Shown here piece after piece: positions 35,044 through 35,830 of a stretch of 64,000 nt of DNA. Under the pieces are notes generated by a model. It made no database searches. It saw nothing but the letters and a program-made list of their open reading frames with translations, and was not told where the DNA came from. How positions within the stretch are numbered: the first letter of the stretch is position 1; every line of letters begins with the position of its first letter. The DNA lies in assembly GCF_054482595.1 (NCBI RefSeq), contig NZ_CM137008.1. The stretch is one strand, 5' to 3'. The position numbers and the translations under genes are program-made.

Positions 35044-35122
35044 AGGAATATCCCTTTTTCGTACTTTTAGTACGCATTATGGTTGAACTGAAAGTTTTTG
35101 CAAGTGCTTTAGTATCGTACTC
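35044..35122. promoter_or_regulatory. oR/pR/pRM divergent control region; cI mRNA probably leaderless
   Basis: 79-bp cro-cI intergenic; palindrome cgtac-ttttag-tacg and related sites; tagtat 7 nt before the cI ATG. Confidence 0.55.
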
Positions 35123-35830
35123 ATGGTTCAGAATGAAAAAGTGCGCAAAGAATTCGCCCAGCGGCTAGCGCAAGCCTGTAAAGAAGCTGGTCTTGATGAA
35201 CATGGTAGGGGTATGGCCATAGCCCGTGCCCTTTCTCTTTCGTCCAAAGGCGTTAGCAAATGGTTTAATGCTGAGTCTTTACCGCGTCAGGAAAAAATGA
35301 ATGCGCTTGCGAAATTTCTAAACGTTGATGTTGTTTGGCTTCAGCACGGCACTTCGTTAAATGGAGCGAATGATGAAGATACTCTTTCATTTGTTGGCAA
35401 ATTAAAAAAAGGGTTAGTGCGCGTGGTTGGTGAGGCAATTCTTGGTGTTGATGGTGCCATCGAGATGACCGAAGAGCGCGATGGGTGGCTCAAGATTTAT
35501 AGTGATGATCCAGATGCCTTTGGTCTTCGTGTGAAAGGAGACAGCATGTGGCCCAGAATAAAATCAGGAGAATATGTACTCATTGAGCCTAACACCAAAG
35601 TATTCCCGGGGGATGAGGTGTTTGTCAGAACCGTTGAAGGACACAACATGATCAAGATTCTTGGCTATGACAGAGATGGAGAATACCAATTTACAAGCAT
35701 CAACCAGGACCACAGGCCAATAACGTTACCTTATCATCAAGTAGCAAAGGTGGAGTATGTGGCTGGTATTCTGAAGCAATCTCGTCATCTGGATGACATC
35801 GAGGCAAGGGAGTGGCTGAAAAGTTTGTGA
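35123..35830 (+). CDS. cI: CI-type prophage repressor (HTH plus LexA/S24 peptidase-like C-terminal domain), non-lambda immunity
   Basis: 235-aa ORF; N-terminal HTH and C-terminal LexA/S24-like autocleavage domain (GDSM motif); differs from remembered lambda cI. Confidence 0.85.
   Translation: MVQNEKVRKEFAQRLAQACKEAGLDEHGRGMAIARALSLSSKGVSKWFNAESLPRQEKMNALAKFLNVDVVWLQHGTSLNGANDEDTLSFVGKLKKGLVRVVGEAILGVDGAIEMTEERDGWLKIYSDDPDAFGLRVKGDSMWPRIKSGEYVLIEPNTKVFPGDEVFVRTVEGHNMIKILGYDRDGEYQFTSINQDHRPITLPYHQVAKVEYVAGILKQSRHLDDIEAREWLKSL

Follow-up and report, generated by a model that had tools for sequence, protein, structure and literature searches.

A probable 933W-type lysis–lysogeny switch in an apparently intact, Shiga-toxin-free, lambda-like Escherichia coli prophage

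Genes and boundaries of the immunity region

The window analyzed here is a stretch of 64,000 nucleotides from contig NZ_CM137008.1 (RefSeq assembly GCF_054482595.1), and all positions refer to it. Reading of the sequence and its open reading frames places cro, a 79-bp operator/promoter region, and cI, with the two genes on opposite strands, within positions 34816–35830 (Table 1). A sequence-only reading of positions 35044–35830 had earlier proposed a hetero-immune, non-lambda cI/cro module embedded in lambda-like surroundings, and this proposal is upheld: CI matches its lambda counterpart over 45 aa only, at 36% identity, and Cro gives no match to lambda Cro. The LexA-like C-terminal domain that had been attributed to the 235-aa CI corresponds to a Pfam Peptidase_S24 domain (E 5e-16), which accompanies an HTH_3 domain (E 1e-5); the 75-aa, non-lambda cro was also recovered as described, but it falls outside positions 35044–35830, which it adjoins. 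Since neither CI nor Cro shows lambda homology along its length, the module does not belong to the imm-lambda type. Identity to HK022 CI reaches 35% over 71% of the length. When CI and Cro were searched against the sequences of solved structures, only spurious pseudoazurin matches and a weak match to N15 Cro were returned, with neither the 434 nor the lambda repressor among them.

The limits of the non-lambda block were set by a blastn comparison with lambda. DNA homologous at 98% stops at 34442 and restarts at 38299, and homology is absent over 34443–36962; the sole similarity within the block is an 82.5% identical island at 36963–37082, which corresponds to the lambda terminator beyond rexB. 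On one side of the block, positions 30600–34442, running from ninF through ninB, ren, P, and O to the 3′ end of cII, are 98% identical to lambda, and Q (28326–29059) is 97.8% identical. On the other side, identity of ~98% continues from 38299 to the ea22 region and takes in ea10, cIII, kil, gam, bet, and exo. The corresponding protein identities are 99.3% for O, 99.1% for P, and 97.9% for ren, so that the earlier description of O, P, ren, ninB–E, and Q as lambda-like is borne out. One boundary runs through cII, the last ~20 codons of which lie inside the DNA that is 98% identical to lambda; CII as a whole shares 94.9% identity with its 933W counterpart, compared with 32% for the lambda protein. 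N is likewise 32% identical to its lambda counterpart, and an Rfam scan of positions 33000–39500 detected the cIII thermoregulator alone.

A megablast search of the phage collection with positions 34700–35900 returned 243 records, the best of which span query positions 1–1136. Over 34700–35835, DNA identity to 933W, phi24B, Min27, and others is 97.4–97.6%, and the matches also include Stx2 phage I and many Stx1a/Stx2a phages. Homology to 933W stops at 35835, 5 nt past the cI stop codon, and returns at 36964 with 77% identity. While the hetero-immunity had been correctly perceived in the sequence-only reading, the 933W type had not been recognized, despite identities of 97.4% at the DNA level and 99.6% in CI. 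Most of the DNA differences from 933W in cro–OR–cI are synonymous. In cI, 12 of the 14 codon differences are silent, and the remaining two produce I179V and L235S, the only changes among 235 residues; in cro, three of four are silent, and Cro (98.7% identical) differs at one of its 75 residues, L64M. As judged from these codon comparisons, the mostly synonymous divergence of cI and cro is that of genes under selection and not of relics.

The residues with which the recognition helix of 933W CI reads DNA, S41, K42, and K46 (PMC3317979), are all present here (S40-S41-K42-G-V-S-K46), as is the Ser/Lys dyad of the S24 domain, with S141 in GDSMW and K178 in MIKIL. A K178N substitution in 933W CI renders the prophage non-inducible (PMC3610611). 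The I179V change adjoins the catalytic K178 and is conservative.

Table 1. Features of the switch region and adjoining genes (positions in the window)
Feature	Position	Strand	Basis
cII, 98 aa, 933W type	34381–34677	-	Pfam Phage_CII, E 7e-31
Non-lambda block: most of cII, nutR, cro, OR, cI, cargo, terminator, OL/pL, nutL, N, sieB	34443–38298	.	blastn against lambda
Candidate pRE CII box TTGCTGTAACTTGT, then TAAGAT, toward cI	34655–34668	+	pattern search; predicted
nutR, boxA-like GCTCTTTGTAAC, then two hairpins	34763–34808	-	coordinates carried over from 933W annotation; fold
cro, 75 aa	34816–35043	-	ORF list; HTH matches in Pfam and phrog_35
OR1 CGTACTTTTAGTACG	35060–35074	.	homologous to annotated 933W/phi24B OR1; PWM 16.7, second best in window
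pR: -35 TTGCAA (35098–35103), 16-nt spacer, -10 CATAAT (35076–35081)	35076–35103	-	promoter scan
OR2 TGAACTGAAAGTTTT	35084–35098	.	identical to annotated 933W OR2; PWM 12.4
pRM -10 hexamer TAGTAT	35110–35115	+	3′ end of pM/pRM annotated in 933W and phi24B
OR3 CGTACTCATGGTTCA, centered on A of cI ATG	35116–35130	.	identical to annotated 933W OR3; PWM 14.6
cI repressor, 235 aa	35123–35830	+	ORF list; Pfam HTH_3 and Peptidase_S24
Putative promoter-like site TTAACA-17-TACAAT ahead of cargo genes	35908–35936	+	consensus scan, 10/12 matches
Two overlapping cargo genes, 106 aa (35954–36274) and 227 aa (36274–36957), in lambda rexAB slot	35954–36957	+	ORFs
cI operon terminator (tM/tImm)	36963–36990	+	terminator scan; hairpin -13.4 kcal/mol, z -2.55
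OL2 CGTACTTATGGTTCT	37174–37188	.	aligns with 933W OL site CGTACCAATAGTTCT; PWM 15.0
Candidate pL: TTGATT, 17-nt spacer, CATTAT	37188–37216	+	read from sequence, below scan threshold; predicted
OL1 CGAACCAATAGTTCA	37198–37212	.	aligns with 933W site CGAACTATTGGTTCA; PWM 17.1, best in window
nutL, boxA-like GCTCTTTAAAC, then two hairpins	37264–37308	+	nutR-like architecture; predicted
N antiterminator, non-lambda type	37408–37680	+	Pfam N_peptide, E 8e-32

Operators, promoters, and the start of the cI message

The 933W operator is a symmetric 15-bp site in which positions 2–5, G-(A/T)-A-C, are conserved and contacted (PMC3317979). All five operators footprinted in 933W have counterparts at homologous positions in the window, which confirms the earlier proposal of operators in both the cro–cI and pL regions. 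Coordinates of OR1–OR3, pR, and pRM were carried over from the GenBank annotation of 933W (AF125520) and phi24B (HM208303), and the names OL1 and OL2 were given by proximity to N, which is an assumption. A position weight matrix (PWM) built solely from the five 933W operators gave its four highest scores among the ~64,000 window positions to OL1, OR1, OL2, and OR3, in that order, and its sixth highest to OR2. The ten 933W half-sites carry T (7/10) or C (3/10) at position 6, an invariant AC at positions 4–5, and G at position 2 save in one half of OR2; these counts match the published description (PMC3317979). The core GWAC-N5-GTWC is found nine times in the window against 2.5 expected, with four of the nine matches in the two control regions, and the half-site CGTACT recurs at 35060, 35116, and 37174.

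OR1 differs from its 933W counterpart at one weakly specified central base, T for C at 35068 (CGTACTTTTAGTACG here, CGTACTTTCAGTACG in 933W); a T-to-C change lies beside it, and the cro leader carries a 1-bp insertion. The OL region is only 77–79% identical to 933W, and both OL sites keep positions 2–5 and 2′–5′ while their centers differ. The changes at the center of OR1, beside OR1, and in the cro leader, together with I179V in CI, could shift affinity or cleavage rate. A third OL site was sought with the matrix and none was found, the best candidate scoring 1.4 against 12–17 for the real sites. A putative OL3 at 37159–37173 (TGAACAACAAAATTT), with this score of 1.4, was rejected, as it has one good half-site only and is not conserved in 933W; 933W itself is reported to lack OL3 (PMC3317979, PMC5977221, PMC3064807). 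The 17-bp "putative operators" annotated in Stx2 phage I are superseded by the footprinted 15-bp sites.

Two short palindromes had previously been singled out as operator-like. The first, cgtacttttagtacg at 35060–35074, coincides exactly with OR1. The second, agta-tcg-tact (35111–35121), is not an operator: its first five bases are the end of the pRM -10 hexamer, and the remainder is the left OR3 half-site. This second palindrome is mis-registered, the true OR3 being CGTACTCATGGTTCA at 35116–35130, and OR2 (35084–35098) was overlooked. Both palindromes are perfect and intergenic, which would be expected if such short elements, the 11-bp one in particular, were the true repressor sites in place of the 15-bp ones. 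Against this, the stated recurrence does not hold: AGTATCGTACT occurs once in the window, and palindromes made of two 4-bp arms around 3 bp number 277 against ~250 expected, a frequency attributable to chance. The published 933W site is 15 bp long with its contacts at positions 2–5 (PMC3317979), and the 15-bp model yields five sites at positions homologous to 933W, so that repression through the short palindromes is hardly credible.

The pR promoter overlaps the pR annotated in 933W, and its hexamers are conserved in SI8 and MS2 LVA; OR2 lies within its spacer and OR1 over its start region. The candidate pL is kept in 933W as TTGATA...CATTAT, with OL1 in the spacer and OL2 abutting the -35 element. 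For pRM, the TAGTAT hexamer proposed earlier is indeed followed by the 7 nt cgtactc and then by the cI ATG. With a start at 35123, OR3 is centered on +1, OR2 on -32, and OR1 on -56. OR2 thereby covers the weak -35 region, so a lambda-style activation contact at pRM is not simply transferable. An alternative pRM using the palindromic TTGCAA (35098–35103) as its -35 element was considered and rejected, as no acceptable -10 element lies 16–18 nt downstream. Stx2 phage I is also annotated with a cI promoter inside the gene; this assignment, too, is superseded by the footprinted 15-bp sites.

On the basis of annotation, geometry, and conservation, the pRM message of cI is predicted to be leaderless, starting at C35122 or A35123, a reading that is well supported but not proven. 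The phi24B annotation places the pRM start 1 nt before the cI ATG. No Shine-Dalgarno sequence was found within 25 nt of the ATG, where the best anti-Shine-Dalgarno duplex reaches -0.2 kcal/mol compared with -2.9 to -10.3 kcal/mol for the nine neighboring genes compared, and over its first 60 nt the cI coding RNA shows no exceptional degree of structure (z +1.2). A TAnnAT hexamer stands 6–7 nt before the cI ATG in four relatives, 933W, SI8, MS2 LVA, and mEp043. In the 933W-type relatives it reads TAGTAT, TACTAT, or TATAAT, with positions 1, 2, 5, and 6 invariant, positions 3 and 4 variable, and the 7-nt spacing unchanged (SI8, MS2 LVA); mEp043 has TAGAAT 6 nt before the ATG, despite its different operators. 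The annotated hexamer, its conserved spacing, the lack of a Shine-Dalgarno sequence, and the unexceptional folding of the 5′ RNA together make a leaderless start the best reading.

In the competing view, the working pRM -10 element is not TAGTAT; cI would be transcribed with a conventional leader, or its translation would begin further downstream, as at the GTG of codon 7 (35141). This view draws on the position of OR2 over the -35 region when the start is set at 35123, which leaves only the poor -35 candidates ACTGAA and CTGAAA, on the older Stx2 phage I annotation that put a putative cI promoter inside the reading frame, and on the pRE transcript, which is certainly long-leadered. It is, however, difficult to reconcile with the missing Shine-Dalgarno sequence, with the use of TAGTAT in the 933W and phi24B annotations, and with the retention of T1, A2, A5, T6, and the 6–7 nt spacing at CI identities of 88%, 50%, and 41%, including one relative whose operators differ. 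Codons 2–3 of cI also vary synonymously in MS2 LVA. Moreover, leaderless translation of lambda cI is established, according to the passages of PMC8630535 and PMC3342100 that cite it. We consider a conventional leader or a downstream start improbable.

Proposed working and standing of the switch

The mechanism outlined here was shown experimentally for 933W and is carried over to this prophage from near-identity. CI dimers would bind the 15-bp operators through G-(A/T)-A-C at positions 2–5. With OR1 covering the pR start and OR2 lying within the pR spacer, occupation of these two sites would turn pR off, and occupation of the two OL sites would do the same for pL. Activity of pRM would accompany OR2 occupancy, and OR3, which overlaps both the cI ATG and the predicted start of pRM, would shut pRM off at only slightly higher CI levels. 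In 933W, OR1 is much the strongest site for CI, OR2 and OR3 being lower and alike; binding shows no pairwise cooperativity, and OL–OR looping plays no role (PMC3317979, PMC5977221). Non-cooperative binding, the lack of OL3, and the absence of looping would leave pRM largely auto-repressed and the repressor low, and would thus allow ready induction (PMC3317979, PMC5977221, PMC4848623). RecA-stimulated self-cleavage by the S24 domain, through S141 and K178, would induce the prophage, and the 75-aa Cro would work on the same operators during lytic growth. To establish lysogeny, CII would drive pRE from a TTGC-N6-TTGT box inside cII; this candidate box occupies the start of the gene, where lambda has its pRE, and the pattern search also recovered lambda-like CII boxes at the expected pI (44685–44698) and paQ (28749–28762) positions. 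The pRM message would most likely begin with the A of the cI AUG or with the nucleotide preceding it and, as for lambda cI, be translated without a leader. After cI and before the conserved terminator, a two-gene cargo takes the place of the 933W stk cluster.

Comparison with 933W and phi24B reveals 97.4% DNA identity over cro–OR–cI, identical OR2 and OR3, two OL sites, and no OL3, whereas the differences comprise the central base of OR1, two single-base changes flanking OR1, and the two CI substitutions. As in 933W, the cI operon ends in the same terminator and is adjoined by lambda-like O, P, and ren; the terminator can be aligned both to the tM annotated in 933W and to the lambda DNA immediately past rexB. 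The genes after cI differ, being L0084-L0083-stk-L0081 in 933W and the 106-aa and 227-aa reading frames here. O has 299 aa, as in lambda, compared with 312 aa in 933W, and, unlike 933W, this prophage lacks stx genes and carries lambda-type head and tail genes. With lambda, the region shares divergent pR and pRM with their three operators in the cro–cI interval, a self-cleaving repressor of the S24 type, cargo and a terminator after cI, pL/OL ahead of N, and, as predicted here, a CII-dependent pRE and a leaderless cI message. It differs from lambda in having operators of 15 rather than 17 bp, two OL sites rather than three, and a cro–cI gap of 79 rather than 100 bp; the centers of OR3, OR2, and OR1 lie at 0, -32, and -56 from the cI ATG, compared with -19, -42, and -66 in lambda. 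The 933W repressor further departs from that of lambda in its lack of pairwise cooperativity and of any part for looping (PMC3317979, PMC5977221).

Natural lambda-like phages with a 933W-type cI have already been sequenced, namely Lambda_ev087 and Lambda_2E9. Lambda_ev087 shares the gene order cro-cI-cargo-N-sieB-ea10-kil-gam, the lambda O, P, ren, and ninB, and a CI that is 98.3% identical, but carries a single 299-aa reading frame as cargo between cI and pL. Among more distant phages, the Salmonella P22-like SI8/SF10 (SI8 CI 87.7%) and MS2 LVA (40.9%) show the same operator pattern and promoter geometry, and the coliphage mEp043 (CI 49.8%) keeps the -10-to-ATG spacing with different operator sequences. 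These phages and HK022 represent separate immunity types.

Taken together, the region at 34443–38298 is interpreted, with a probability of roughly 0.93, as a 933W-type (imm933W) lysis–lysogeny switch in an apparently intact, Shiga-toxin-free, lambda-like E. coli prophage adjoining torS. Because the non-lambda block is confined to this interval, the prophage can be regarded as a natural "lambda imm933W", a counterpart to the laboratory lambda-imm933W hybrids, which are viable (PMC6989128). The 4-kb region recurs in full, at 100% identity, in three unrelated E. coli chromosomes, in which the prophage has lambda-type head, tail, and lysis genes, lacks stx genes, and has its integrase next to torS; EC5502, CREC-2, and 4FM are strains with the identical region. 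Many lambdoid prophages of E. coli are defective, and one pseudo-CDS in the nearby pL leader is labeled "frameshifted" by RefSeq; the locus might accordingly be a decaying remnant in a cryptic prophage that looks like 933W and no longer works. We regard this as very improbable, given that full-length reading frames are retained for cI, cro, cII, N, O, and P, the differences from 933W are mostly synonymous, the five operators and both promoters are intact, the prophage gene set is complete from integrase to tail genes, and three unrelated strains carry the identical region. From its sequence, the 933W-type switch would almost certainly be functional. The immunity module is real, but its type is already known and corresponds to the characterized 933W switch. 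That switch has been footprinted, mutated, and modeled since 2004, with footprinting and EMSA for 933W published between 2004 and 2012.

Cargo slot, ecological implications, and distribution

The two-gene cargo is the only unusual part of the region. The 106-aa protein yielded no family match in Pfam, NCBIfam, PHROG, or PADLOC. The 227-aa protein matches phrog_14825, whose function is unknown, and shows CCDC90-like coiled-coil similarity below threshold, and its C-terminus is hydrophobic; searches of both cargo proteins against PADLOC, NCBIfam, and Pfam gave nothing usable, and the HEC-07 match (E 0.009) spans the coiled-coil stretch only. A distant homolog of the 227-aa protein, 30% identical over 138 aa, was found in HK542, whose corresponding slot likewise holds a cassette of two genes, the second of them encoding the homolog; HK542 has a lambda-like repressor and an immunity type unlike that of this prophage. 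At the DNA level the cassette is absent from the phage collection, and it occurs in 39 of 5426 complete E. coli genomes, in all cases with at least 99% identity. It is conceivable, although we hold this only tentatively and think it doubtful, that the 106-aa protein and the 227-aa coiled-coil protein with its C-terminal membrane helix are expressed in the lysogen as a hitherto undescribed system for superinfection exclusion or abortive infection. The slot after cI holds different cargo in every relative examined, which makes it a good place to seek prophage-encoded defense genes.

The switch itself offers little new biology, and its practical interest is ecological. A toxin-free prophage with a 933W-type repressor should render its host immune to Stx2 phages of the 933W type. 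Such a repressor could also repress an Stx2 prophage in trans, an idea that has been deliberately engineered (PMC6989128). The operator region is present in 426 of the 5426 complete E. coli genomes (~8%), and the exact allele seen here was found in 41 of those 426.

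Operator spacing and pRM geometry

The cro-cI gap measures 79 bp in the window, compared with 100 bp in lambda (2941-3042 of the lambda comparison sequence L005). Relative to the cI ATG, the centres of the predicted CI operators OR3, OR2 and OR1 (35060-35130) lie at 0, -32 and -56, whereas those of lambda lie at -19, -42 and -66. Owing to this placement, OR2 overlaps the -35 region of pRM, the cI promoter; therefore, the activation geometry of lambda should not be assumed for pRM of the window. On the weight matrix derived from five operators of Stx phage 933W, TGAACGAACAGTTCA in the late genes (22039-22053) achieved as high a score as OR2. 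This site carries a G at position 6, a base disfavoured by the 933W repressor, and is probably a chance match.

Antitermination elements and the cassette downstream of cI

Both nut sites share an unusual layout, in which a boxA-like element is followed by a first hairpin and then by the CUGAAAAGC hairpin. The accompanying N protein shares only 32% identity with its lambda counterpart, and its C-terminus presumably resembles P22 gp24. In the RefSeq annotation of an E. coli sequence with the matching prophage region (L004, 22906-23131), a "frameshifted" hypothetical pseudogene spans pL, nutL and the N leader (approximately 37205-37430 in the window); it probably reflects an error of annotation and not gene decay.

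A two-gene cassette, whose genes overlap stop to start (TAATG), was located between cI and the operon terminator, a slot occupied by rexAB in lambda and by the stk cluster in 933W. Among 5426 E. coli genomes, 39 carried the cassette, and in HK542 the same slot holds a distant homologue of its 227-aa protein.

Features of the immunity block and flanking regions
Feature	Coordinates	Strand	Remarks
KilAC-domain antirepressor-like gene	29880-30602	-	
nutR	34763-34808	-	
Promoter-like site ahead of cassette	35908-35936		
Two-gene cassette	35954-36957	+	106 aa and 227 aa products
nutL	37264-37308	+	
N	37408-37680		accompanies nutL and nutR
cIII thermoregulator (Rfam Lambda_thermo)	38967-39025	+	88.5 bits

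Flanking modules

The cIII thermoregulator belongs to the lambda-like sequence that adjoins the immunity block on its left. In the nin region, lambda homology breaks at 29060-30599, where lambda ninG-ninI are replaced by the KilAC-domain gene, a DUF1364 gene and rusA. An antirepressor, if encoded there, could affect induction of this prophage or of a co-resident one. The integration module is also non-lambda, given that int-xis (44369-46004) is only 79% identical to its lambda counterpart and that the prophage adjoins torS instead of occupying attB-lambda.
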